Positions 807 through 19,850 of a stretch of 20,000 nucleotides of DNA are shown here, one piece after another. Position 1 is the first letter of the stretch, and each line of letters starts with the position of its first letter. Source of the stretch: an uncultured virus (IMG/VR IMGVR_UViG_3300030098_005439) (Duplodnaviria; Heunggongvirae; Uroviricota; Caudoviricetes); IMG/VR virus record IMGVR_UViG_3300030098_005439, one strand, 5' to 3'. The position numbers were made by a program, and so were the translations under genes. The notes under the pieces were generated by a model. That model made no database searches. It was not told where the DNA came from and saw nothing but the letters and a program-made list of their open reading frames with translations.

Positions 807-840
807 TGTGCGCTTTTGCACAAACGAGAGGTAAAACATG
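807..840 (+). repeat. intergenic leader module copy (TGTGC-N6-GCACA hairpin + GAGAGGTAAAA SD)
   Basis: tgtgcgcttttgcacaaacgagaggtaaaacATG, nearly identical to 1185-1222. Confidence 0.8.
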
Positions 841-1185: not shown

Positions 1186-1222
1186 GTGCGCTTCTGCACA
1201 AATGAGAGAGGTAAAAACAATG
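1185..1222 (+). repeat. intergenic leader module copy (TGTGC-N6-GCACA hairpin + GAGAGAGGTAAAAACA SD)
   Basis: tgtgcgcttctgcacaaatgagagaggtaaaaacaATG. Confidence 0.8.
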
Positions 1223-1825
1223 AAAGGTATAGAAGAATACTGGAAAACTGTTCGGGAAAACATCAAGGATATTGGTGGCCTGAGTATAGTGAAGCCGAAG
1301 TTATCTGTTGATGACTTAGATTCTCTGCTCTGGTTCACCGATGCTTTCAATGCCGATTGGGACTTGGAAGAAACCAGCCTTGAATCAAGAGAGTTTCACA
1401 AAACTCTTGGATGCTTGCATCCTCAAGCACAAAGGGACATGGAAACTGCTCACGATTATGTTGAGAAGTTAATCATGTATAACCTTGCCCAAGGTGGGCT
1501 GAGTTTGAAGATGAAAGACCTGACCATTAAAGAAGTTAGCTTTGATAAGCCTATCTTCTATGATGCTGAACAGTATGTAGAGTGGCATAAGAAGCTACCA
1601 ACAAGAGAGCCGAGGCTTACTCGTAAGAGAGCCAATGGTTTGTGGTGGTTGCTTACTTTTGCTGATGAGATGGAAGCTACCGCAGAACATCTTGGAATCG
1701 GAGAAGTTTACCGTGTCCTTGTAGACGGTGAACCTGGCAAGTGGGATCGTGGCAAGGCAGTTATTGCTGGCCTCGCTCGATACCATGAGAGTAGGTTCCC
1801 TACTGCGCCGAGAGGTGCAGCATGA
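1220..1825 (+). CDS. hypothetical protein
   Basis: ORF 1184..1825; start reassigned to ATG 1220 right after the GAGGT SD. Confidence 0.8.
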   Translation: MKGIEEYWKTVRENIKDIGGLSIVKPKLSVDDLDSLLWFTDAFNADWDLEETSLESREFHKTLGCLHPQAQRDMETAHDYVEKLIMYNLAQGGLSLKMKDLTIKEVSFDKPIFYDAEQYVEWHKKLPTREPRLTRKRANGLWWLLTFADEMEATAEHLGIGEVYRVLVDGEPGKWDRGKAVIAGLARYHESRFPTAPRGAA

Positions 1826-2338: not shown

Positions 2339-2407
2339 ACTGTGTGCTGATGCAATCGGTATACACGCCAGGTGTTTTTGCCTGGTGTTCTATGAGGTAA
2401 AAAAACA

Positions 2408-3490
2408 ATGAGTAACAATATAGATATTGCTTATACGCTATGTATCCAAGCCGGTATCCCCGTATGTTTATGGGGGCCTCCTGGTATCGGGAAGACTGCG
2501 CGGACACATGCAATCGGCAGAGAGTTAAACAAGAAAGTTGTTGAACTTATCTGTTCTACTATGGACCCAACAGATACGGGCTTGCCCATCATTAAAGATG
2601 GTAGGTTCGAACGTGTTGCTCCGCAGTGGGCTTACGATTGTGATGACAATACAATCCTATACTTGGATGAGTTTTCTTGTACTCCCCCTGCTGTTCAGGC
2701 TGCTGCCTTGAAGATTGTAGGAGAACGGAAGTGCGGAGACTTTGCCTTGCCCAAGGGATTGTCTATTGCTTTGTCTGCTAACCCTGTCGAACAGGCTGCT
2801 GGTGGGTGGGACTTGGCTCCACCTATGGCGAACCGTATGGTTCATCTGGATTGTTCTCTATCTACCGAAGACTGGTGCGATGGTATGGTTTCCGGCTGGC
2901 CTGACATGGAAGTTACTAAGCTTCCTAAAGGTTGGAGGAAGTTGATCCCATCGAAGCGTGCTCTGGTGACGGCTTATATTAGACGTTTCCCTTCTCATCT
3001 TTTGGATCTTCCAAAGGAAGAAGAAGCCCAAGGTAAAGCATGGAGTTCTCCCCGTTCGTGGGACAACTTTTGTACTCTACTCGCTGCGGCTGAGTGCTCT
3101 GGCGTTGACGATACAGTGATTCATTATCTCGCAAAAGGTACAGTTGGTCATGCGGCTACGTCTTTTATGACGTTCCGAGAGCAACTAGATTTACCTGACC
3201 CTGAGACTCTGATCGCTGACCCGTCTTTGTATGAACACTTTGAACGTGGTGATAAGGTTCACGCAACACTAGCTAGTGTGGCTGCTGCTGTACTCGCAAA
3301 GAATACAGCGAAGCGTTGGGAAAATGGTGTCCAAGTAATGATTAATGCTGCTGAAAAAGGTGGTACTGACATCGCAGCTATTGCCTGTCGGTCCCTACTT
3401 TTGGGCGGTATGCCTTCTGGCGCCACTATCCCTGTTCAAGTGGATCGATTCTTCCCTATGTACGCTGCCGCTGGCATCGTGAAGGGGTAA
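2408..3490 (+). CDS. MoxR-like AAA+ ATPase (AAA_5 type)
   Basis: Walker A GPPGIGKT, Walker B ILYLDE, 'LSANP', 'PPMANRM' Arg finger, 'SPRSW' sensor; lies upstream of a VWA gene. Confidence 0.9.
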   Translation: MSNNIDIAYTLCIQAGIPVCLWGPPGIGKTARTHAIGRELNKKVVELICSTMDPTDTGLPIIKDGRFERVAPQWAYDCDDNTILYLDEFSCTPPAVQAAALKIVGERKCGDFALPKGLSIALSANPVEQAAGGWDLAPPMANRMVHLDCSLSTEDWCDGMVSGWPDMEVTKLPKGWRKLIPSKRALVTAYIRRFPSHLLDLPKEEEAQGKAWSSPRSWDNFCTLLAAAECSGVDDTVIHYLAKGTVGHAATSFMTFREQLDLPDPETLIADPSLYEHFERGDKVHATLASVAAAVLAKNTAKRWENGVQVMINAAEKGGTDIAAIACRSLLLGGMPSGATIPVQVDRFFPMYAAAGIVKG

Positions 3491-4404: not shown

Positions 4405-4444
4405 TGTGTATGTGATTTTCGCTACACAAAACAAGAGGTAAAAA

Positions 4445-5665
4445 ATGCAAGTAATGAATCGTGAGATCGTCGAAGATTCTCTCCAAATAAGAGAGAAAGT
4501 CATGGCGGCTAGACTCATAGCGCAGACTAGGTGGAAATACTTTTCTTCCCAACTGCTGTCTATGGTTCTGGTCGCTAAACCTGGCAGTTCTTTTGGAACG
4601 TGTGCGACAGACTGCAAGGGTCGTTTCTATTATGACCCTGCGTTCGTCCAAAATGTTTCCGTAGAAGAACTTGCAACCATCTGGTTGCATGAATGTCTAC
4701 ACTGCTGGCTCGACCATGCGAATAGGAGGGACGGTAGGGATTCTTCCCGCTGGAATAAAGCCGTTGATCGTGAGATCAATGACGATCTAGTGGGAGAAGG
4801 TTTCCCTTTTCCTCTAAACTATCCACCTCTCTTGCCCTTTGACATCGGCCAAGAAAACGGACAACTCGCTGAGTTTTATTACGAGTGCGAGGAAGAAGAA
4901 GATGGCGAAGACGAAGGTGAGGGTGATGGCAAAGGCAAAGGCGGCGGCTCATCTATGGATGGTGAGCCTCGTGACTGGGAAGATGGGGATGAAACTCCAT
5001 CGGTACCGGAAGCCGTACAGGAATGTATCAGGCATGATGTATCTAATAAGATTGTCGAACACTCTAAAACCAGGGGGCGTGTGCCCGGTGGTTTATTACA
5101 AGAAGCTATGCGGCAGATTGAACCGCCTAAAGTTTCTTGGCAAAAAGAGTTAGCTTCTGCTGTTCGAGCGTGTGCTGCTGACGTAGCTGGCGCGGTAGAC
5201 TTTACGTACCGCCGTCCATCACGTAGGCAATCTATCTATGGTGACATAATCATGCCCGCTGTTCGTAGGCCCGTGCCCGAGACTGTGATTGTCTTGGATA
5301 CATCTGGTTCTATGTATGGTGGTGACTTAGATTCTGCCTTGAGAGAAACTCAGGGTGTTCTAAAGTCATTGGGTGGTCGCGGTATCCGCGTACTGTCCAC
5401 TGATTCTCAGGTACATTCTCGCCAAAGAGTGAGTCATACATCTAAGATTAAAGCTTTAGGTGGTGGCGGTACTGATATGAGAGTTGGGATAGTGGAAGCT
5501 AGAAAGCTGAAACCTTCCCCTGACTTATGTATCGTACTTACTGATGGGTACACTCCCTGGCCTGACAATGCCCCGAAAGGAATGAAAGTCATTGTCGGTG
5601 TGACAGGTAGGCATGGAAGGGACGGCCCGAGTTGGGCTCGAAACATTCGCATCGATGCCGAATGA
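4445..5665 (+). CDS. HExxH metallopeptidase-like + VWA domain protein (DUF2201-like)
   Basis: 'WLHECLH', 'WNKAVDREIN', acidic linker, 'YRRPSRR', MIDAS 'LDTSGSM', 'GGGTD', 'LTDG'. Confidence 0.88.
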   Translation: MQVMNREIVEDSLQIREKVMAARLIAQTRWKYFSSQLLSMVLVAKPGSSFGTCATDCKGRFYYDPAFVQNVSVEELATIWLHECLHCWLDHANRRDGRDSSRWNKAVDREINDDLVGEGFPFPLNYPPLLPFDIGQENGQLAEFYYECEEEEDGEDEGEGDGKGKGGGSSMDGEPRDWEDGDETPSVPEAVQECIRHDVSNKIVEHSKTRGRVPGGLLQEAMRQIEPPKVSWQKELASAVRACAADVAGAVDFTYRRPSRRQSIYGDIIMPAVRRPVPETVIVLDTSGSMYGGDLDSALRETQGVLKSLGGRGIRVLSTDSQVHSRQRVSHTSKIKALGGGGTDMRVGIVEARKLKPSPDLCIVLTDGYTPWPDNAPKGMKVIVGVTGRHGRDGPSWARNIRIDAE

Positions 5666-5734: not shown

Positions 5735-5756
5735 GTTGGGTCGCTCCCAACTTTTT
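5735..5756 (+). terminator. short hairpin plus U tract downstream of the ribozyme
   Basis: GTTGGG-tcgct-CCCAAC-TTTTT. Confidence 0.5.
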
Positions 5757-5773
5757 AATAGAGGTAAGAAACA

Positions 5774-6631
5774 ATGGAAGAAAAAGAAATCTCAATTGGC
5801 GGCGCTGTTACCGTGTGGAAATCAGCACCGGCAGTAAGAAGCTACGTACAAAAGAAACTAATCACCATCGGTGTTGGTGACTTTTGCCCTGAGCCTACAA
5901 CCAGGCATGTCGCTCTCCGTAATGCTCTTAAAAGCCAATACGGAAGTGAGTCTGTCAAGACGCTGCCTGGTTTCGCAAACTTTGCTGTGATTAACGCATC
6001 TGTTTCCAGCAAAAACTGGGAGGGCCAAGCAAAAGTCATCGTTAAATCTGAGCACGATGGGCTTACATTTCACAGTCCGAATGATGAATACGATGATAAA
6101 GGTGGCCTTGAACAAGTGACTATCGATAACATCAATGAGTTGTTCGAAGCTGAGTTGAGTTGCATCCCGGCCAATGATGTGTCGAAGATGCTAGTCAAGT
6201 TGGCTCACCATGTAGGCGGTATGGCCTGTGCTTCTGGCGCGGGTGGCGCTTACTGGATTCCAAAAGATTCTTTGAGTCTTTGGAAAGAGATTGCGGATAC
6301 TGTTGAAGGTTCTTCGCGGGGCAGGTCATCGTCCAAAGTATTCATGTTCACTACAGCTATGGACGATGAAGCTGTCCGCGCTGTTGTCGGTTCTTTGGAG
6401 AACAATATCTTCAAAGAGTTGAAGGACATGGAAGACGAGATTGCTTCTGGCAAGTTGAAGAAACGTGCCTTGGAATCTCGACAGCGTGCCCTTGGTGAGA
6501 AGCGAGAAACGATTCGAGAGTATGAAAGTATGCTCGGAGTTACTCTCAAGAAACTTCACAAGGCAGTTGAGCAGACAAAGAAGAACAGTGTTCTTGCTGC
6601 TATGCTCTCTTTGGGAGGCGATGAGTCATAG
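5774..6631 (+). CDS. DUF6744/DUF3150-like helical phage protein
   Basis: 285 aa, 'GGAYWIP' motif then a long coiled-coil C-terminus; this family type often accompanies AAA+/VWA cassettes. Family call is from memory. Confidence 0.65.
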   Translation: MEEKEISIGGAVTVWKSAPAVRSYVQKKLITIGVGDFCPEPTTRHVALRNALKSQYGSESVKTLPGFANFAVINASVSSKNWEGQAKVIVKSEHDGLTFHSPNDEYDDKGGLEQVTIDNINELFEAELSCIPANDVSKMLVKLAHHVGGMACASGAGGAYWIPKDSLSLWKEIADTVEGSSRGRSSSKVFMFTTAMDDEAVRAVVGSLENNIFKELKDMEDEIASGKLKKRALESRQRALGEKRETIREYESMLGVTLKKLHKAVEQTKKNSVLAAMLSLGGDES

Positions 6632-6641
6632 ATACTCCATT

Positions 6642-6676
6642 ACCCCTGAGCACCTGAACGGGTGTTCAGGGGTTTT
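6642..6676 (+). terminator. strong intrinsic terminator ending the early region
   Basis: ACCCCTGAGCACCT-gaac-GGGTGTTCAGGGGT-TTT. Confidence 0.85.
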
Positions 6677-7412: not shown

Positions 7413-9647
7413 GTGGAGAGCAAGGACTTCCAAACTGGAGCAATATACAATTGGCAAATTTCTCTTTTCTTATCAGGCTTTACTAGTGTAAGGCCGCAAC
7501 AGGTCGTTGTCAAATGTCAGTCTCAGGTAGATAAACTATTCCTAAGACCCCCGACTAAGATAAACGAGTTTCCAAAGCGTAAGCTACCATGCTGGTCTCC
7601 CGCTCTCTATCAGCCTGGGAAGACTAGGAAGAACGGAAACGTTTCTAGTTTGTCAGCACTGGTATACGATTTTGATTCTGGTAATACCTCACCAGGTCTC
7701 ATGGCATCGGACCTCCGCAAAGCTGGGCACGCCTTTGTCATCTATACAACGTGGAGTCACACAAAAGCTAACCCCCGATTCCGGTTAGTCTTTTTCCTTA
7801 ATAGACCTATTCTTCCACATGAGTTTGTTCGCGTATGGGACAATGGCCTTTCCCTCATCAGTTATGTTGATGGGGTTGACCGGCAGTGTCGGGACATAGC
7901 GAGGCATTATGCTATGCCGGTTAGGAGATTGGGAGCAGAGGAATACGTGAGCGAGATAAATGTTTTTGGGAATCCACTTGATGTAGATAAACTATCATCA
8001 GCAAAATCAGGCAGTGGGGAAGGGGGAGAAGTAAAGCTGACCCCTGACATGCAGCTTGTTTTAGATGATGGCAAGTCCTTACCTGTGTGTGAGGTAGTAG
8101 AAAAGGGTCCAGGTAAGTACAGGTGTACTTGCCCTTTTCAGGATGGAGCATCCCCTGGTTCCGCTTTCTTGCGTGTAATGGATGATGGCCGAGCGTTCTT
8201 GCAGTGTACTAGTTCAAGGCACACGCATGAAGGGAAACAGTTCTGGTTAAAGAAGGGTGATGGGGATGGAAAGAAAAGCAAACGTTCCGCGCCCCGAAGT
8301 GTAGAGACAAGAGAGAAACTGTTGGGTGAGATTCCCGATGAGTTGATTGAGTATGCAGAAGATAAGATAGTCTACTGCGCTCCGCAGGGAGTCTTCTATA
8401 GACGTGAGAAAGGTTCCTGGGCAATCTCTCACCCTTGGCAGAAGAGCCATTTAGTAGATCACTTAGTTGGACTACTGCCCAAGGGAACAGATGTTCGACA
8501 TGCTCAAGCCCTGGTAGACCACACACTATCTAGGCAAGCATACGGTTTTGATTGCTCTCCCCGTGGCGGTTCAATTTTATGGGGTGATGTCGGTAGAATG
8601 ATTAACCTCTACTCTAAGCCCAAGGTTAGCCCGGTTCAGGGCGATTGGCCTAGGATTCTAAGAGTTATCCGTGTTCTTTGTGCCCATGATAAGGTAGCTA
8701 TGAAGTGGCTTATCCACTGGTCTGCTGCCCTGGCACAGTTTCCTGAACGAAGGTCGATGGTCGCTACAATATCTATCTCACCGCATCAGGGTATTGGTAA
8801 GAGTCTTTACGGTAGAATCTTATCTGAGATAATCGGCCCAGGGAATACAGCCGTGGTGTCGAATAGAGCATTGAGAGATAAATTCAATTCGAGTTACGTC
8901 GCAGCGTTGTTGGTTCTAGCCGATGAAGTTGGTGTAGATCCGCGAATGACTGACGTAGTAAGTGAGTTGAAGAGTTACATTACAGATGAAGAGGTACACT
9001 GTGCCGCCCCTTACGCAGCACGGACCAAGATTCAAAATAGAATGTCTTGGTGGATGACCTCTAATAACAGAAGACCCCTTGTACTAGACGAAAACGATAG
9101 ACGCATAACCATACTAGCAGCCGCTGAACCTACGCCCGAACACCGAAAGATGTTGAGATCATGTTTTGATTCTAAGCGTGGAACCTTTGAACCGATGTTT
9201 CGTGATGAGATTTCATCCTATGCCCATTACCTAAAAGCCTTAAAGGTTGACTGGAAACTGATTGCCTACCCCTTGGATACGAAAGCTAGACGACAAGTAC
9301 AATCCGCTAGCCTCTCATCAATCGATGCGTTCTTAGACGACATTAAGAAGTTGGGAGTCGTTTCTATTCTAGAAATGTATAAGCCTAGAATGGGAGTGCG
9401 GATCTCAGAATCTGTTCTGCAAAACTGCATACCCTGCGAACGTCTGTACGCATCATTCCGAGAGTGGTGCGAGAGTCACGGCCACAACTACATTCCGCCC
9501 GAGGCTGAGTTGGGGCTGGCCGTTGTCTCATTGAAAGGTGTAGAGAAGACGAACGCTAGGATCGCAGGGTCCAAAGTCAAAGTCTATGTGGGCTTGACAC
9601 GTAAAGAAAAGACTTCTGGACAAGTAGTAGAATTCCCCAAAAACTAA
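7413..9647 (+). CDS. primase-helicase (AEP-like primase + SF3/DUF5906-type helicase)
   Basis: 'ALVYDFD', 'YTTWSH', 'PRFRLV' primase motifs; CTCP...C...H zinc site; Walker A 'QGIGKS', Walker B 'VLADE', 'TSNN', 'DRR'. Confidence 0.88.
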   Translation: MESKDFQTGAIYNWQISLFLSGFTSVRPQQVVVKCQSQVDKLFLRPPTKINEFPKRKLPCWSPALYQPGKTRKNGNVSSLSALVYDFDSGNTSPGLMASDLRKAGHAFVIYTTWSHTKANPRFRLVFFLNRPILPHEFVRVWDNGLSLISYVDGVDRQCRDIARHYAMPVRRLGAEEYVSEINVFGNPLDVDKLSSAKSGSGEGGEVKLTPDMQLVLDDGKSLPVCEVVEKGPGKYRCTCPFQDGASPGSAFLRVMDDGRAFLQCTSSRHTHEGKQFWLKKGDGDGKKSKRSAPRSVETREKLLGEIPDELIEYAEDKIVYCAPQGVFYRREKGSWAISHPWQKSHLVDHLVGLLPKGTDVRHAQALVDHTLSRQAYGFDCSPRGGSILWGDVGRMINLYSKPKVSPVQGDWPRILRVIRVLCAHDKVAMKWLIHWSAALAQFPERRSMVATISISPHQGIGKSLYGRILSEIIGPGNTAVVSNRALRDKFNSSYVAALLVLADEVGVDPRMTDVVSELKSYITDEEVHCAAPYAARTKIQNRMSWWMTSNNRRPLVLDENDRRITILAAAEPTPEHRKMLRSCFDSKRGTFEPMFRDEISSYAHYLKALKVDWKLIAYPLDTKARRQVQSASLSSIDAFLDDIKKLGVVSILEMYKPRMGVRISESVLQNCIPCERLYASFREWCESHGHNYIPPEAELGLAVVSLKGVEKTNARIAGSKVKVYVGLTRKEKTSGQVVEFPKN

Positions 9648-9659
9648 ACGAGAAATAAA

Positions 9660-11264
9660 ATGCCTGACCTATTTTCATGGGCAGACTCTGTTCCTGTGTG
9701 GGCAGAGGATTTGCCTGGAGTGTGGAAGAACAAGAAGAACAATGGTTATCGAGTACCTCACAATGCGTGTGGGATTCTTGAGTGGGACCAACATCAAAGG
9801 GATGGAGCCAAGATACTTGAAGGTGCTCTGGGATCACCCGCCTTACAGCCCTGGGTAAAAGGGTTCCTTATGCCGCATCAAATGAAAGCGGTTTCCCATT
9901 CACTTAAACGGCCTGCCTCTAATGTGTGGGCACCTCCCGGTTCTGGAAAAACGCTTTGCGGAATCGTGTGGCTGTGCGCCGCTGGCTCTAAGTTTAAGTT
10001 GGTAGTCACTAGAGCGATTGCCCGAGGTACATGGAGAGAAGAGATACGCAAGTACACTACTCTGAGAACCAAGTTACTGACTGGTCAATCCGCAGAAACG
10101 TTTGTCCCTGAACCTGATACTATTTACGTTACAGCCTGGGAGACTCTGATACATTGGGGTCCGGTGCTCACCAAGATGCACCCCGACAGTATAGTGTTCG
10201 ATGAGATCCACTGCGCTAAGAACCCCAAGCGTGTATTTGCTGTCATGTCTGCGTCCGGGGAAAAGCAGTGGAAATCTAGAGAAAACATTTCGGCAAACGC
10301 CAGCGAACTTTCCAAGAACTCCAATCGGAGATTGGGGCTAACCGCTACGCCAATACCTAATAGGCCCAGAGATTTGTGGGCACAGTTGGATTTGGTAGAG
10401 CCGTGGCAGTGGGGCACCTTCCACCAATTCGGTGTCCGTTATTGCGGAGGGTTCGAGGATACTTATGGGTGGAAGTACGATGGCCTTAGTAACTCTGATG
10501 AGTTGAATAGCCGACTAAAGCTGGTCAAACATAAGACCTCCCAAAAAGCGATGGCGGCTAACCTCCCGCCCAAGCGTCGGCAGGTAGTACACCTATCACA
10601 AGAAGAACAAAACAGGCCCGCAGGAGGATTCAAACGAGAGATACAAAAAGCATCGAAGATGGGTAACCATGAGGGTTTGTTTGAGTTGTACCTACAAGAA
10701 GCTGCCACACGTAAGCAGAAGTACGTCATTGAACGTGTGACTGAGGCTGCTCGATGCGGTCAAAGGGTCGCAGTCTTTACAGGCAGACGCAAAGATAGTG
10801 AGGAGATAGCTGACAAAGTACAGAAACATTTCTCTAAAGAAGGCGTCACTGCCCAGGTGTGGTGGGCACACGGAGGGCTGAGCACTGAGAAACGCGATGA
10901 GATTCGCGGAGAGTATATGTCTTCTAAAGGTGCCGCTGTTCTTATTGCGACGGGGGACTCGATGGGTGAGTCCATCAACTTACAGAAAACAGATTTGGCA
11001 TTGATCGTAATGTTGCCTTGGACACCTCGGCAGATTCGACAATGGGAAGGTCGATTCATTCGATTGGGTGGAGATAGGCCGGTGCTGATTTCATACGTGA
11101 TTGCCGAAGGGACTGTGGACGAGGACGTGACCGAGGTTTTGTTGGACAAGCTACCGGCAGTTGGCGCGGTCGCTCAGGATGAAATGATCACAGAATTCGA
11201 AGATTCGTTTTCGGCATCAGAGGGTGACCTACTGGCACGCATAATATCTGCAACAAATGCTTGA
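9660..11264 (+). CDS. SNF2-family (SF2) helicase
   Basis: PPGSGKT, DEIH, GLTATP, 'GESINLQ', 'QWEGRFIR'. Confidence 0.9.
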   Translation: MPDLFSWADSVPVWAEDLPGVWKNKKNNGYRVPHNACGILEWDQHQRDGAKILEGALGSPALQPWVKGFLMPHQMKAVSHSLKRPASNVWAPPGSGKTLCGIVWLCAAGSKFKLVVTRAIARGTWREEIRKYTTLRTKLLTGQSAETFVPEPDTIYVTAWETLIHWGPVLTKMHPDSIVFDEIHCAKNPKRVFAVMSASGEKQWKSRENISANASELSKNSNRRLGLTATPIPNRPRDLWAQLDLVEPWQWGTFHQFGVRYCGGFEDTYGWKYDGLSNSDELNSRLKLVKHKTSQKAMAANLPPKRRQVVHLSQEEQNRPAGGFKREIQKASKMGNHEGLFELYLQEAATRKQKYVIERVTEAARCGQRVAVFTGRRKDSEEIADKVQKHFSKEGVTAQVWWAHGGLSTEKRDEIRGEYMSSKGAAVLIATGDSMGESINLQKTDLALIVMLPWTPRQIRQWEGRFIRLGGDRPVLISYVIAEGTVDEDVTEVLLDKLPAVGAVAQDEMITEFEDSFSASEGDLLARIISATNA

Positions 11265-11306: not shown

Positions 11307-12122
11307 ATGAGCAAGATACTACTGGACGCAGGGCCATCCGAGAGGGGGTGGCACCGCATTGAGACTGCCGCACGGTGCCTGCGCTTCTTCGCGCTGCGCG
11401 AGAGTGGGGCTGTGCCCTTCCCTGAGAGCGAGCCTCTCATACGGGGCTCCCTGGTCCACATCGGATTGGCGCACATATACGCCCGCAAGCAGGCGGCAGA
11501 CTCTGGAAACGATCCAGAGAAATACTACAGCCCGATGGATGCAATCCTGAAGTTAGCAGAAAAGAATGGCCCCACATGGGAAGGGTTGGTTGACCACTGT
11601 TGCGACATGGTGAACGCATACCGCCTGCGATGGGGCGACGATAAGAAGTGGAAAGTCATTTCTGTGGAAGAAGAGTTGCGTGCTACGCTTAGAGGTAAGT
11701 GGTTGTATACACAACGAGCAGACCTAATCGTCGAAGATGAGCACGGTAAGGTTTGGATTGTAGACCACAAGACTGCTTATAGGATTGCGTCGGTAACACT
11801 CAGTCCACATATTCTAGATGGTCAAATGCTTGGCTATCAGATGTTTGGCAGAAAGAGATTCGGTAAAAGATTCGGTGGAGTTATCATCAACCGCATCACA
11901 ACACGCGCACCGTTTGCTTTCGACAGGTCTTTACTTGAGCCTGCACCAGATGCGTTGTCGAGGTTTGTCGGAAACCTTTGCGACGTAGAAGAAATGATTG
12001 AGAGGTACGAAGGTCGTCCACCTATGGAATGGCCCGGTACATATTCGAATATGATTTGCACACACAAGTATGGAAAGTGTGATGCGTTTGAACAATGTCA
12101 GTGGGGAGTAAGTAGTGAGTAA
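11307..12122 (+). CDS. PD-(D/E)XK exonuclease, Cas4/RecB-like with Fe-S cysteines
   Basis: N-terminal Cys, 'RGSLVH', 'ADLIV...IVDHKT', 'QMLGY', C-terminal C..C..C. Confidence 0.85.
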   Translation: MSKILLDAGPSERGWHRIETAARCLRFFALRESGAVPFPESEPLIRGSLVHIGLAHIYARKQAADSGNDPEKYYSPMDAILKLAEKNGPTWEGLVDHCCDMVNAYRLRWGDDKKWKVISVEEELRATLRGKWLYTQRADLIVEDEHGKVWIVDHKTAYRIASVTLSPHILDGQMLGYQMFGRKRFGKRFGGVIINRITTRAPFAFDRSLLEPAPDALSRFVGNLCDVEEMIERYEGRPPMEWPGTYSNMICTHKYGKCDAFEQCQWGVSSE

Positions 12123-13020
12123 ACAGAAGGTAGAAGAGTCAGGAGTATTCGCAGTGGTCTACGGACCATCGAAGACAGGTAAGAGCACGGCGACGGGAGC
12201 AGCAGGGGCGGCGGGATTATTCATCGCGCAACCGGGGGGGCTGCTTCCGATTACCAACTATCTTGGTTTGAGTGGAGTCGAATACTTGGCGCCGACCAAT
12301 GTTCAGGAGGCTTCCAAGATCGTTCGAGACAATGCGGGTAAGCATCCAACAATCGTAGTTGATGACTTTTCTCTATTGGTCGAGCAGACAATCCAACAAC
12401 TTGAGAAGAAACATTCCTTCGGAGATATGTGGCGAGCACTCCGACACCAAGTTTTAGAAATGCGTGACGCAGCTAGAACTGCAACAGCCAAGAAAACCCA
12501 TGTCATATTCAACTGTCATCAATCACCGCCTAAGACTTCCTCTGGTAAGTACGTTAGGGGCGGGCCGCAATTGCCCGGTCAATTACCAGAACAGTTTTCA
12601 GCATTCGCAGATGTCGTTGCCCGAGTCAAGTACGATGCGACGGCAGCACCCTGGAAGTACATACTACGCACCGGCCCTGACGCTGAGTATATCAGCGGCG
12701 ATAGGCTCGACATTTTCCCTGACCCTGCTCCGATAAATGTAGGAGAAGCACTGCGATGCGCTGGCTACGATATTCCTAGAGCCAAGGGATTAGAGTGGAT
12801 GGAAGGCGTAGTGAATGACTTATCTTCATTGGTATTAAAGAATGACATACTCGAATGGAGAACAACATTGAAGCCAGCAGCAGAAAAGCTGCGAAAGAAA
12901 TACGAATTACCTCATGTTCGCTGGGCGATACAGGACTCTCTACATAGAGCCGTCTTGCTTAATGCGAAAAACAATCTTCTCGACAACTTGTTTGCCGAGG
13001 AAAACCTGGAAGAGTGGTAG
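12115..13020 (+). CDS. AAA_24 / Sak4-like recombination ATPase
   Basis: 'YGPSKTGKST', 'TIVVDDFS', 'GPQLPG', 'FADVV'; sits between the exonuclease and the SSB-like gene. Confidence 0.8.
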   Translation: MSKQKVEESGVFAVVYGPSKTGKSTATGAAGAAGLFIAQPGGLLPITNYLGLSGVEYLAPTNVQEASKIVRDNAGKHPTIVVDDFSLLVEQTIQQLEKKHSFGDMWRALRHQVLEMRDAARTATAKKTHVIFNCHQSPPKTSSGKYVRGGPQLPGQLPEQFSAFADVVARVKYDATAAPWKYILRTGPDAEYISGDRLDIFPDPAPINVGEALRCAGYDIPRAKGLEWMEGVVNDLSSLVLKNDILEWRTTLKPAAEKLRKKYELPHVRWAIQDSLHRAVLLNAKNNLLDNLFAEENLEEW

Positions 13021-13085
13021 TCCGAGGTGGGATAATTTTTTTATTGTTTTTACCTCTCTCACTTAGGGCTACTGCTCTTCCTTTT
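13008..13085 (+). ncRNA. long hairpin presenting an anti-RBS sequence (candidate antisense RNA)
   Basis: 13008-13032 pairs with 13057-13081 (24 pairs including G-U, one mismatch). 13043-13061 is the exact reverse complement of 1203-1221. Confidence 0.6.
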
Positions 13086-13125
13086 ACCCAAAACACAACA
13101 ACATATGAAACGAGGTCCATTTATT

Positions 13126-13680
13126 ATGGAAAATCTTAGTATTGAACTGAACTTTGAAGGAGTAAACGCGGCTGGAGGATTGGGTTCTTTGCCCGCTGGC
13201 CTTCACGCAGCATCGATTGCGGAGTTTAAGCACTTCCCTGATACAAACCGGCTGTACGCTTACATGGTTACGAATGGTATTCGTCACCGCGAAAGCTTTG
13301 GTTTGGATAATCCCAACAGCCTTCCTTTCGTGAAAGCATTTCTCTTGTCCGCTGGCGTTCCAGAAGACAAGGTGGCTGGAAAGAACAAGGTTCCCTTTCA
13401 CAAGCTGTGTGGCCGTGATGTATTCTTCCAATACACTCCTGCTGATACAGACGATAGTGGGAACCGCATCGATGGTAGTTACGCTCGATACGTTTTCTAC
13501 CAACAAGGTCAGTGGGAACAGATGGTTGCGTACAGCAACAACGCACCATCAAACTCTGATGTCGTAGTTGAAGAGCCGACATCGAATGGCGCATCCTCAA
13601 CTGCACCCGTTGAAGCTGTGGGAGCAGCGGACGACGATGGGGATGACTTCGACTTCTTGCTCAACGATAGTGATGAGTAA
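13126..13680 (+). CDS. putative single-stranded DNA-binding protein (DUF669-like)
   Basis: SD GAGGT at 13112 favours ATG 13126; 'LPAG' N-terminal motif; acidic/aromatic tail DDDGDDFDFLLNDSDE; follows the Sak4-like gene. Confidence 0.7.
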   Translation: MENLSIELNFEGVNAAGGLGSLPAGLHAASIAEFKHFPDTNRLYAYMVTNGIRHRESFGLDNPNSLPFVKAFLLSAGVPEDKVAGKNKVPFHKLCGRDVFFQYTPADTDDSGNRIDGSYARYVFYQQGQWEQMVAYSNNAPSNSDVVVEEPTSNGASSTAPVEAVGAADDDGDDFDFLLNDSDE

Positions 13681-16222
13681 GGCGATCGAATCCTTTAACG
13701 GAGCCCTTTGCAGGTCGTGTCCTCTTGGATGCGACCTGCATCGCTCCGGTGAAATGTTTCCAGTAGGAGCGGAAACCCATGATGGCGATAAGATTGCCAT
13801 TATAGGTACGGCCCCTGGTAACCGAGAGATAGAAGAGGGTCGCCCTTTCGTCGGCCCGAGTGGGATGGAGTTACAAGCTGCCTTGGATGCAGTGGGGATC
13901 TCCCGCACAGATTGTCACCTTACGAATACGATTGCCTGTAGACCGAAGGCCGATGACCTATCCGGCTATATGCTCAGACTAGGTAGGCGTAACAGAAAAC
14001 GCAGATCAAAAGATGAGCCTGAATGGTCTACCCCACACTCTTGCTGCAAGCCCAGGCTGCACAAAGAGTTGGAAAGTTTTACTAAATTCATTTGCCTTGG
14101 CGCCACCGCAGCGGCTGCGCTTAGAGGCGGCAACCCTTCCATTATGAAGCTGAGAGGTTCATGTGAAACGATTCCCGCACCTTGGGATAGGACTAAGAAC
14201 ATTCTCGTTGCATACACTCTGCACCCCGATTTTGTAATCCAAAGACCTAAGTGGCGATCTACTTATCAACATGACATAGCCAAAGCTGCTAGGTTTTTTG
14301 ATGGAAACCTTTTGTGGAAAGACCCGCTAATCTTGCGGCCCCAGTCAATCAGAGAGGTTCAGTCCGCATTGGCTGCTCTACGGGCAGCGGGTAAGCCGAT
14401 TGCGTATGACGTTGAGACTGATGCTAAGAATCCGCTAGATGCCCGACTGAGGTGTGTCGCTTTCTCTAATGAGAAGACTGCGGTAGTTGTGCCCATCTTA
14501 TCTATCGACGGCGCTACTCGTAGTTTCAACCCGCAAGAAGAGAAAATCCTATTGGAGATTCTTAGAAACTTTCTCAAGAATCCTGGGGTACCCCTTCTCG
14601 GACACAACGCAGGCCAATACGATAGAATCGTTTGTGAAGAACAGTTGGGTGTAACCCCTAAGTTATCCGCAGATACTTTGTTGATGCACCTACTCGCAGA
14701 TAACGAAATGCCTCACAACCTAGGCTTTGTGGGCTCTAGGTATACAGACTTTACGGAAGCCTGGAAAGCTGACCATACAGCTACGCAAGCACGCACTGAC
14801 CACGAACTACATACCTACTGCGCCAAAGACTCTTGCGTAACTATACGTGCGATGAAGCCTCTGACAGAAGTGATTAAGAAGAGAGAGCAGTGGCCCCTAT
14901 TAAAGCTGGAGCATCAACTACAAGACATTGGCTGCAAGATGCAGCGTCTTGGAATGTTTGTAGACCAAGCGAAGCTATTGGAACATGAGTTTAGATTTGA
15001 GACTGAGGGCAAGAAGTATCGAGATATATGCCTAGAGATAGGGCCGACAGACTTTAATCCCAACTCTACTACTCAACTCAGGAAAATACTTTTCGATGAA
15101 TGGGGATTGTCGCCAGTCAAATACAACGAGAAAAGCGGTGACCCTAGTACAGATGATGACTCTCTACGAAGGATGCTTACGGAGTATGGGCTAGACGAAG
15201 AAAAGAATACCTTTATTCAAGCTATTCGTTTGGTCAGACGAAATACAAAACTACTGAGCACATACATCAAACCTCTACGCTCGGGCTTGGTACTGCCTGA
15301 TGGTCGAGTACACCCAGCGTACAATCGATTACCCGCTACAGGTCGGTACTCATCTTCGGAGCCGAATGCTCAAAACATTCCTTACGATCTTAGGGACTTG
15401 TTTATTCCCCAGCCCGGTCATGTGTTTGTTGGCGCTGATGCTGACCAGTTGGAGTTGCGGTACATCGCAGAAGAAGCGAACGCTGAAAGACTTATTGAAG
15501 TTATTAATTCGGGCCTAGACCCACATAACGAGACAATGGAGATTGTTTATGGAAAAAGCATATGGTCGCTCAAAGGAGCGCCAGAAGAGAGAACGCAAAA
15601 AGGCAAAGACGCTTTCAAAGCTACGCGAGGCGTTACCAAGAATGTCCGATACGCATGGCAGTACGCAGCCAGCGTCCCGAGAATATGGGAAGCAGTCGTC
15701 AGTGTTGAGGATGATGAGGGTAAACTCATCTACTCGCACCTTACGAAAAGGGACATTCGCGATGTTGTCCGAGGATTGGAGAGGGCAGATCCCGAGATCC
15801 CCCAATGGTGGCAGCAGACGCGGAACAGTTACAGAAGAAATGGATACGTAGCAGATTCTCTTTGGGGTAGGCGTCGAGACTTTAAAGATGAAGAGAAGCT
15901 AAATGAGTTGGTGAACCACCCAATACAAACAGGTGGAGCAGTTGTGGTGCATGAATCTATGCTGCAACTAACTACGGGCCACCCAGGTAGAGCGACAGAA
16001 ACTGTAGAGCAAAGTGATGTTGGCGTCATACCATTCGACTTTGAGAATAAGACAGGTCTAGTGAACCAGTGTCACGATTCTCTATTGTTCGAAGTGCCCG
16101 AGGATGATGGAGAGAAAGTAAAGGAGTGGCTTCAAACTGCGATGACTCGTCGCCGTAGGGATGGAGCCCGAGTCAACTATACAGCCGAAGCGGAGATCGG
16201 CATGAATTGGAAGGAGGTGTGA
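13673..16222 (+). CDS. polA: family A DNA polymerase with N-terminal uracil-DNA glycosylase (family 4-like) and 3'-5' exonuclease domains
   Basis: UDG: CxxC, GTAPG, PFVGPSG, TN..CRP, LHP. Exonuclease: YDVET, HNAGQYD, YCAKD. Polymerase: TGRYSSSEPNAQNIP, DADQLELR, RxxxKxxxYxxxY, NHPIQ, HDS. Start reassigned to ATG 13673, overlapping the SSB end. Confidence 0.93.
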   Translation: MSKAIESFNGALCRSCPLGCDLHRSGEMFPVGAETHDGDKIAIIGTAPGNREIEEGRPFVGPSGMELQAALDAVGISRTDCHLTNTIACRPKADDLSGYMLRLGRRNRKRRSKDEPEWSTPHSCCKPRLHKELESFTKFICLGATAAAALRGGNPSIMKLRGSCETIPAPWDRTKNILVAYTLHPDFVIQRPKWRSTYQHDIAKAARFFDGNLLWKDPLILRPQSIREVQSALAALRAAGKPIAYDVETDAKNPLDARLRCVAFSNEKTAVVVPILSIDGATRSFNPQEEKILLEILRNFLKNPGVPLLGHNAGQYDRIVCEEQLGVTPKLSADTLLMHLLADNEMPHNLGFVGSRYTDFTEAWKADHTATQARTDHELHTYCAKDSCVTIRAMKPLTEVIKKREQWPLLKLEHQLQDIGCKMQRLGMFVDQAKLLEHEFRFETEGKKYRDICLEIGPTDFNPNSTTQLRKILFDEWGLSPVKYNEKSGDPSTDDDSLRRMLTEYGLDEEKNTFIQAIRLVRRNTKLLSTYIKPLRSGLVLPDGRVHPAYNRLPATGRYSSSEPNAQNIPYDLRDLFIPQPGHVFVGADADQLELRYIAEEANAERLIEVINSGLDPHNETMEIVYGKSIWSLKGAPEERTQKGKDAFKATRGVTKNVRYAWQYAASVPRIWEAVVSVEDDEGKLIYSHLTKRDIRDVVRGLERADPEIPQWWQQTRNSYRRNGYVADSLWGRRRDFKDEEKLNELVNHPIQTGGAVVVHESMLQLTTGHPGRATETVEQSDVGVIPFDFENKTGLVNQCHDSLLFEVPEDDGEKVKEWLQTAMTRRRRDGARVNYTAEAEIGMNWKEV

Positions 16223-18389: not shown

Positions 18390-18598
18390 TACGAATGTTT
18401 AGTTGTGATCGCCACGATAAAATGTTGATCATCCATCAAGAGTTGGTTTGTCCGTTGTGTAAATACATAACGGACACCGCAGAAGCGCGAGAGCACGCGG
18501 AAGAAGCCTTGTCCTGTTTGCAGGACGACGACTTAGTGATGGAATTATCTGACGTAGCTGATAAACTAGTGTCATCAATGGAGAAGCTTAGTCAGTAA
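18386..18598 (+). CDS. small hypothetical protein, CxxH..CxxC putative zinc site
   Basis: ATGA overlap; CDRH...CPLC. Confidence 0.65.
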   Translation: MIRMFSCDRHDKMLIIHQELVCPLCKYITDTAEAREHAEEALSCLQDDDLVMELSDVADKLVSSMEKLSQ

Positions 18599-19538: not shown

Positions 19539-19850
19539 TTATTGTTTTTTGCTCTCTAAGATACGGTCTAGTTTTGAGACAATATCGTTGTGGACTTTTG
19601 TGCGTGTGATCAAGAAGTCTTTTGACTGCACATCTATCTGGCCCCGGTACTCATCAATTACACGGTCGTATCGTTCACGCATTTTTTCAGATCGAGCATC
19701 ATATTCCTTGCGGATCTCATCAAGCTGTTCCTGAAAACCTTCTACAAGTTTATCCAACCTCTTTTGCATAGCCATAAACTGATACACAAGAAAAGCCGCA
19801 AAGAGCCCAAGGTGTCCGCCTGCCAGCAGTGTGTCTATCAGGGCTTCCAT
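19539..19850 (-). CDS. putative holin (single N-terminal TM helix + coiled coil, BhlA/UviB-like architecture)
   Basis: Hydrophobic 'LLAGGHLGLFAAFLVYQF' then a charged coiled coil; ATG 19850 overlaps the stop of the upstream lysin-like gene; SD GGAG. Confidence 0.6.
   Translation of the reverse strand: MEALIDTLLAGGHLGLFAAFLVYQFMAMQKRLDKLVEGFQEQLDEIRKEYDARSEKMRERYDRVIDEYRGQIDVQSKDFLITRTKVHNDIVSKLDRILESKKQ

Follow-up and report, generated by a model that had tools for sequence, protein, structure and literature searches.

The window, a stretch of 20,000 nucleotides, corresponds to bases 3043 to 23042 of a 56,747-nt IMG/VR virus record judged to be complete. Its left arm is transcribed from the plus strand, with small genes of unassigned function followed by replication and recombination genes, and its right arm lies on the minus strand, with the portal gene and further large genes, mostly without assignment. 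Comparison of positions 12500 to 13700 with cultured phages by megablast gave no match, and the top tblastn match of the UDG-PolA protein in cultured phages displayed only 24.7% identity, indicating that the virus has no close cultured relative. Related contigs originate from marine metagenomes. Among public RNA runs, none was listed that covers positions 12600 to 13500. Loci were collected with the Sak4-like protein in two viral-contig scans (24 and 37 loci) and in a metagenome-contig scan (67 loci). The genome of the window is designated G000; relatives are designated G001 to G010 (genomes) or by L numbers (loci and contigs). The main features of the left arm are as follows.

2408 to 3490, plus strand: MoxR-like ATPase gene
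4445 to 5665, plus strand: gene for a DUF2201/VWA protein
6642 to 6673, plus strand: strongest terminator-like hairpin, just 3' of the last gene with an early-type RBS
7413 to 9647, plus strand: primase gene
9660 to 11264, plus strand: SNF2 helicase gene
11307 to 12122, plus strand: PD-(D/E)XK nuclease gene
12115 to 13020, plus strand: Sak4-like AAA_24 gene (PHROG 124, PF13479), the 3' end of which is the 5' arm of the hairpin described below
13126 to 13680, plus strand: gene for a 184-residue OB-fold, SSB-like protein
up to 16222, plus strand: UDG-PolA fusion gene

Ten plus strand genes located upstream of the primase gene share an RBS composed of AGGT and, between it and the ATG, an A-rich spacer with ACA as its last bases (early type), and the replication genes use RBSs of another type. 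Terminator-like plus strand hairpins were detected after early genes at 1152 to 1179, 2300 to 2335, 5735 to 5751, and 6642 to 6673; an early-type RBS comes next after the first three, and the fourth possibly marks the end of an early unit. These hairpins fit separate early and replication transcripts, without proving them. A small GTGC...GCAC hairpin is present immediately 5' of the RBSs of the genes starting at 838 and 1220.

The protein encoded at 13126 to 13680 had no sequence match in Pfam or in the PDB. An AlphaFold2 model of this 184-residue protein, built with 17 homologues, displayed an OB fold (pLDDT of 77.7), for which the top PDB match by Foldseek was PrgE of pCF10 (E value of 3e-6); RPA as well as SSBs of phages and bacteria ranked lower. 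Alignment of the family revealed an acidic C-terminal tail. The OB-fold model, the Foldseek matches, and the acidic tail together make the SSB label given to this gene by the first-pass annotation a reasonable one, and the predicted structure designates the protein as a candidate PrgE-like single-strand-binding protein. Its own RBS (GAGGU, 13112 to 13116) is not of the early type. The CA-rich unstructured leader that precedes the gene (13086 to 13104) is kept in the hairpin-bearing relatives and looks like a translation enhancer.

Between the Sak4-like and SSB-like genes, the first-pass annotation had described a stem of about 24 bp closed by a 24-nt loop and followed by UUUU. This description was borne out by RNAfold analysis of positions 13000 to 13130 (-40.1 kcal/mol; z = -4.1; none of 200 shuffled sequences equally stable), which returned 24 pairs (13008-13023/13066-13081 and 13025-13032/13057-13064) separated by a 1x1 internal loop. 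The element comprises the following parts.

13008 to 13032, plus strand: 5' arm (RNAfold, RNAalifold, and anchored pair table of 12 hairpins)
13033 to 13056, plus strand: apical loop of 24 nt, 79% pyrimidine, with the anti-SD UUACCUC at its 3' end (RNAfold)
13057 to 13081, plus strand: 3' arm, followed by UUUU at 13082 to 13085 (RNAfold, RNAalifold)
13037 to 13061, plus strand: anti-RBS tract, with 19 nt perfectly matched (13043 to 13061) and, including G-U pairs, 25 contiguous pairs with 1203 to 1227

Positions 13008 to 13020 of the 5' arm are still coding, since they contain the last codons of the Sak4-like gene and its TAG stop codon (13018 to 13020). In the centroid fold, ACCUC (13052 to 13056) pairs inside the hairpin with GAGGU (13024 to 13028), and the anti-SD of G000 is therefore not always free. 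Analysis of both strands of the window by cmscan against 4,227 Rfam families, including the C4 antisense RNA (RF01695), revealed no match at the gathering scores. The loop sequence recurs in part (79% over 28 nt) at 19539 to 19566, where the two arms of the genome converge; this second copy lies inside the end of a minus strand ORF, its anti-SD is broken, and its fold is not significant (z = -0.14).

The hairpin is conserved in related phages. All 12 relatives examined that have an intergenic spacer of this type carry a hairpin of 22 to 30 pairs, at the same place down to about 47% identity of the Sak4-like protein; in many other relatives, the Sak4-like gene and the next gene abut or overlap without a spacer. 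Pairs were compared in tables anchored on the stop codon shared by the 12 distinct hairpins, the apical loops of which are of 6 to 24 nt, and the six alignable sequences were submitted to RNAalifold, which returned 25 pairs, including 7 with compensatory changes. Pair types vary on both sides at anchored positions, as exemplified by position -1 (GC, CG, UA, and UG). With the addition of 4 hairpins from more distant lineages, the plus strand fold was more stable than the minus strand fold in 16 of 16 cases, with 1 to 8 G-U pairs per hairpin. The greater stability on the plus strand and the G-U pairs agree with a sense-strand RNA, in which the hairpin forms a conserved structure.

Read on the minus strand, the loop resembles an SD with its spacer, and an ATG is present at the right distance in L035 and L037, as expected if the reverse strand carried the genuine RBS of a small antisense gene. 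We consider this highly improbable. An SD-preceded start with an ORF of at least 15 codons was found in just 2 of the 12 hairpins, in different frames, indicating that a reverse-strand gene is not the reason for the hairpin; moreover, 3 of the 12 have no such ORF, the window has ATA in place of ATG, and the hairpin is much weaker on the minus strand.

The conserved stem could also be a purely structural element of the mRNA, namely, an RNase III-type site, a stabilizer of the 3' end of the Sak4 message, or a leaky terminator, in which case the complementarity to RBSs presented below would be a by-product of base composition. This is the main rival to the interpretation that we favor, although we regard it as rather unlikely. 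Stems of 22 to 30 bp, found in 12 of 12 hairpins, reach the length of about two turns of double-stranded RNA that is sufficient for RNase III-type enzymes, and a short U tract follows the hairpin in the window, L035, L074, L078, and L081. For a terminator role, the evidence is unfavorable, since the U tract is absent from G002, G003, and G004, and loops of 12 to 24 nt are not terminator-like. In the window, the loop of 24 nt and the run of just 4 U residues are not those of an intrinsic terminator, and a terminator scan marked only an inner 5-bp fragment of the hairpin (13065 to 13078).

The first-pass annotation had also proposed that 13043 to 13061 is the exact 19-nt reverse complement of 1203 to 1221, a segment that comprises the SD, the spacer, and the AT of the start codon of the gene at 1220. 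Direct reading of the sequence established this identity, although 5 of the 19 perfectly matched bases fall in the stem rather than in the loop. An inverted-repeat search identified the same pair as the longest of the window (arms 1200-1225 and 13039-13064; 26 nt; 92%). The claimed extension to about 25 nt by G-U pairs was recovered by RNA.duplexfold as 25 contiguous pairs (-33.3 kcal/mol). Pairing had similarly been claimed for four other RBSs (826 to 836, 2394 to 2409, 4434 to 4444, and 5760 to 5775), all of which were retrieved by duplex prediction, leading to the following list of candidate target sites.

826 to 840, plus strand: early-type RBS and start of gene 838-1128 (predicted duplex, -21.0 kcal/mol)
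1203 to 1227, plus strand: SD, spacer, AUG, and first codons of gene 1220-1825, the best predicted target
2393 to 2410, plus strand: early-type RBS and start of the MoxR-like ATPase gene 2408-3490 (-16.6 kcal/mol)
4433 to 4447, plus strand: early-type RBS and start of the DUF2201/VWA gene 4445-5665 (-13.8 kcal/mol)
5759 to 5776, plus strand: early-type RBS and start of gene 5774-6631 (DUF6744), the second-best predicted target (-22.3 kcal/mol)

Gene 1220-1825 encodes a protein of 201 residues with a weak match to DUF3153, and its stop codon is overlapped (ATGA) by the next gene (1822-2259). For the ranking of targets, a 29-nt probe (13033 to 13061) was compared with the start region of each of the 68 genes called by a simple custom script that picks starts by SD words. 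Predicted energies of -14 kcal/mol or lower were obtained for 10 of 15 start sites of the early zone, 3 of 16 later plus strand start sites, and 4 of 37 minus strand start sites, i.e., 10 of 15 versus 7 of 53 (Mann-Whitney, P = 6e-5), the early class being assigned from gene position and RBS type. The early RBSs thus rank as preferred targets, as the first-pass annotation had anticipated. The predicted order was gene 1220, gene 5774, a late gene (genome positions 50605 to 52422), gene 838, and a gene located upstream of the window; the third rank of the late gene counts against early specificity.

The early-type RBS is a lineage-specific tag, which consists of AGGT followed by aaaaaca in G000, by aaagaga in G003, and by aagag in G002, of GGAGGT followed by aa in G004, and of ACAACGGAGAUAAC in G006. 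In each of these lineages, the complement of the loop reads as a member of the lineage's own tag family, and the spacer positions of the loop and the tag change jointly in G000, G002, G003, and G006. Scans of both strands of whole genomes for exact complementarity to upstream plus strand RBSs identified the hairpin as the top plus strand peak in five of five genomes (z = 7.7, 5.7, 4.6, 6.4, and 4.6), in which 7 of 20, 5 of 17, 3 of 15, 9 of 20, and 2 of 10 RBSs, respectively, were matched over at least 9 nt, the first values being those of the 56,747-nt G000. When G-U pairs were allowed, the hairpin ranked first in G000 (z = 7.8), third in G006, after two sites located outside the plus strand gene block that resemble RBSs of minus strand genes, and third in G004, of which the loop is only 6 nt, after two coding sites.

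In a permutation test, the whole spacer of nine lineages, with no chosen loop, was scored against all upstream plus strand RBSs of each lineage. The pairing of own spacers with own RBSs exceeded the permuted pairings (P = 1e-5), with values ranging from 4.2e-4 to 0 of 50,000 permutations (P below 2e-5) for six scorings; for own loops and own RBSs in four lineages, the observed assignment ranked 1 of 24. None of 150 sets of random plus strand segments of the same length from the same genomes reached the observed value of 12.44 (control mean of -0.01; standard deviation of 1.92). A duplex-energy version of the cross-lineage test over the whole spacer was not significant (P = 0.11), as G+C-rich stems may pair with anything. 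The lineage-specific signal was carried by G000, G003, G006, G002, and G004 and all but vanished in L125, L126, L128, and L096 (excess of own over other pairings of 0.1, -0.2, 0.8, and 0.3), for which about 10 kb of upstream sequence with mutually similar tags was covered. The permutation and random-segment controls indicate that, where relatives have retained the stem, the complementarity persists and co-varies, as the first-pass annotation would predict.

These results bear on the purely structural interpretation. Pyrimidine-rich loops and purine-rich RBSs do pair to some degree by composition alone, the loops are 71 to 100% pyrimidine in 16 of 16 hairpins, and distant lineages give generic matches only. 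Composition nevertheless fails to explain the joint changes of loop and tag spacers in G000, G002, G003, and G006, and it leaves the permutation test, the random-segment controls, and the perfect 19-mer unexplained. A structural role is in any case compatible with an anti-RBS role and not exclusive of it.

The nearest relative, G001 (about 95% identical), lacks positions 837 to 1821 of the window, i.e., genes 838-1128 and 1220-1825. Compared with G000, G001 has a 4-nt indel and two stem-preserving transitions in its loop, which matches the RBS present at the same junction over 15 nt. The protein encoded by gene 1220 had no match in five relatives, which for G001 results from this indel of 985 nt. 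The joint of the indel falls exactly between an early-type RBS and an ATG, and the tags therefore seem to be the points at which gene cassettes are joined by recombination. This raises the question of a relic at the DNA level, in which an inverted copy of the RBS linker devoid of any function as RNA would be kept similar to the tags by gene conversion or recombination among repeats. Both the use of the tags as recombination joints and their homogeneity, even in genomes without the hairpin, would be accounted for in this manner. We consider such a relic unlikely, because the inverted copy invariably occupies the loop of a hairpin that is conserved and strand-specific and that keeps its position in lineages with Sak4-like proteins as distant as about 47% identity, because repeated conversion of an inverted tract of 15 to 20 nt in each lineage is less economical than selection, and because crossing over between inverted repeats would invert 7 to 15 kb.

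The hairpin is not universal. Five complete relatives without it (G005 and G007 to G010) retain private RBS tags, and genome scans revealed no clear intergenic anti-RBS outlier in any of them. Only a short hairpin without the loop is left in L109. The retention of the tags in the hairpin-less relatives and the loss of the loop in L109 indicate that the element is dispensable and that the tags are independent of the hairpin. In L059, and identically in L099, the top plus strand peak is a small hairpin located 3' of the SSB-like gene (around 11470 to 11510), of which the 14-nt loop is complementary to the AAGGAAAAACAAAA tag of that lineage, which differs from those of the other lineages. Judged by its sequence, this candidate element is a second, independently placed instance. 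In G005 and G009 (rotated positions around 25860 to 25900), a weak 9-nt complement of the CAACAGGAA tag was found after a conserved hairpin located 3' of the SSB-like gene; the same conserved hairpin was found again upstream of PolA in G006 and G007. Three other anti-RBS candidates, all in genomes without the hairpin (L055, position 10153; L066, position 3984; and G009, position 18433), were rejected as coding, unstructured, or not conserved.

The location of the hairpin directly upstream of the OB-fold SSB-like gene, the conserved unstructured CA-rich leader at 13086 to 13104, and the capacity of GAGGU at 13112 to 13116 to pair with ACCUC are also what would be expected of a cis regulator, in which the anti-SD would mask the SD of the SSB-like gene or the hairpin and the leader would form an autoregulatory operator akin to that of T4 gene 32. 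We consider this role quite improbable. The SD of the SSB-like gene offers just 5 bp, and its start is not among the 22 best predicted targets, an observation that gives no support to the cis switch on this SD offered as an alternative in the first-pass annotation. A switch acting on GAGGT at 13024 to 13028, the other cis alternative, finds no support in the 5' arms of G002, G003, and G004, from which this motif is missing. In the same three genomes, the SSB-like gene has an RBS of another type, yet the loops track the early tag. An autogenous operator of the T4 gene 32 type agrees poorly with a start site that is not a preferred partner of the loop and with the absence of the element where the two genes abut without a spacer. 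Finally, the element of L059 sits 3' of the SSB-like gene.

A strand-specific conserved hairpin that mirrors its own tag and follows it through evolution is most simply accounted for by RNA-RNA pairing with early mRNAs. We therefore propose, with a confidence slightly better than even, that the hairpin would be an anti-RBS RNA element of the replication operon, dampening the translation of early mRNAs by pairing with them. Of the original trans-acting proposal, the assignment of the loop as an anti-RBS element for a class of early start sites is retained and the cis-switch alternative is not supported. According to this proposal, the long stem of 22 to 30 bp would present a pyrimidine-rich loop complementary to the early RBS tag of the lineage, covering the SD and the A-rich spacer and, in some lineages, extending up to the AUG. 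After transcription of the replication operon, the loop would become available within the mRNA or in a nuclease-resistant 3' fragment ending in the hairpin. At the starts of about ten early mRNAs, its pairing would block the binding of 30S subunits, and the longest duplexes may form a substrate for double-strand RNases. The outcome would be a coordinated lowering of early protein synthesis in mid-infection. Processing, RNA accumulation, trans action, repression, and the early timing of the tagged genes are what we infer from the arrangement of the sites.

The hairpin belongs to none of the families discussed below, with the members of which its kinship is in concept. The P4 CI RNA is a structured phage RNA of the c4 kind, and the specificity of c4 differs between related phages through matched changes of regulator and target, leading to heteroimmunity. 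The loops of the c4 RNAs of P1 and P7 pair around the RBS of the phage's own message (PMC12197685). The element described here similarly combines a phage-encoded structured RNA, a loop complementary to the phage's own RBS region, as deduced from sequence comparison, and matched divergence among relatives. It differs from c4, a processed stand-alone RNA that controls one operon (antirepressor) and lysogenic immunity, in that a single loop is directed at about ten scattered starts of early genes, is located inside the replication operon, overlaps a coding end, and has no match in Rfam.

In the 3' UTR of Staphylococcus aureus icaR, an anti-SD motif pairs with the SD in the 5' UTR, blocks the initiation complex, and yields an RNase III substrate (PMC3868564). 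In both cases, an anti-SD motif able to pair with an SD is located downstream of a coding region, but icaR acts on its own mRNA, whereas the complementary sites are here in other genes, 7 to 15 kb upstream, and probably in other transcripts. Phage T4 RegB inactivates early mRNAs at the extended SD motif GGAGRAYARAA during the early-to-middle transition (PMC3014915). The early start sites studied here likewise contain an extended SD and A-rich motif comparable to that recognized by RegB. RegB and RegA are proteins, whereas the recognizer would here be an RNA, the specificity of which can follow the tag through simple base changes.

The start-associated sequence (SAS) of Cluster K mycobacteriophages is a private 13-nt tag with an SD core found 3 to 7 nt before the starts of many nonstructural genes, for which the authors leave open whether the reader is an RNA or a protein; four Cluster K genomes each hold a single copy on the complementary strand (PMC3203893). 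Like the SAS, the tags studied here are private to a lineage, include an SD core, and precede many nonstructural starts in one orientation. They were found before 10 genes in G000, 8 in G003, and 4 to 6 in G006, with further families in G005 to G010. To our knowledge, no reader of the SAS is known. By analogy, the lone inverted copy of the SAS in these Cluster K genomes may represent the arrangement described here for the hairpin.

The enterobacterial 3' UTR small RNAs CpxQ, SroC, and DapZ are bounded by a terminator, need Hfq and RNase E, and have their seed at the 3' end of a coding transcript. The candidate regulatory seed reported here is also present at the 3' end of a coding transcript, with the difference that the operon continues downstream. 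A search of the full-text literature, with subscription journals outside its coverage, retrieved no published description of a natural phage hairpin with a loop complementary to an RBS shared by early genes.

Promoters, sigma factors, nucleases, and RNA-binding proteins are the main means by which lytic phages are known to time their gene expression. If our proposal is correct, a sense-strand hairpin within a replication operon, acting by base pairing on an entire class of early start sites, would provide a cheap and evolvable switch, and it would explain the private RBS tags on the early genes of many phages, an open question since the SAS of Cluster K. A tentative extension, which we hold to be possible rather than probable, is that the tag and its loop co-evolve as a private addressing system, in which early genes are marked by their own RBS tag and later all read by one loop. 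Since a superinfecting close relative shares the tag, the loop could silence its early genes too, and tag and loop would diverge in an arms race, as did c4 of P1 and P7 for immunity. Under the main proposal, swapping loop and tag between two lineages should swap specificity, and loop/tag pairs would provide orthogonal parts for synthetic translation control.

The proposal also leads to expected early tags of the GAGGUAAGGAUCAU type in L073 and L074 and of the ACAAAGGAAAAA type in L061, L102, and L105, and to a shared AAAAUGACAA start region in L078 and L081. In the search for longer contigs of the L073/L074 lineage, the hairpin context was found at none of the 80 loci examined among at least 119 unrelated matches to a 14-nt pattern, and a 19-nt degenerate pattern gave no match. 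The hairpins of L078 (1397 to 1466) and L081 (1492 to 1561) are located at the same place as that of the window, and their loops are devoid of an anti-SD but complementary to AAAAUGACAA, which would cover the start codon and the first codons.
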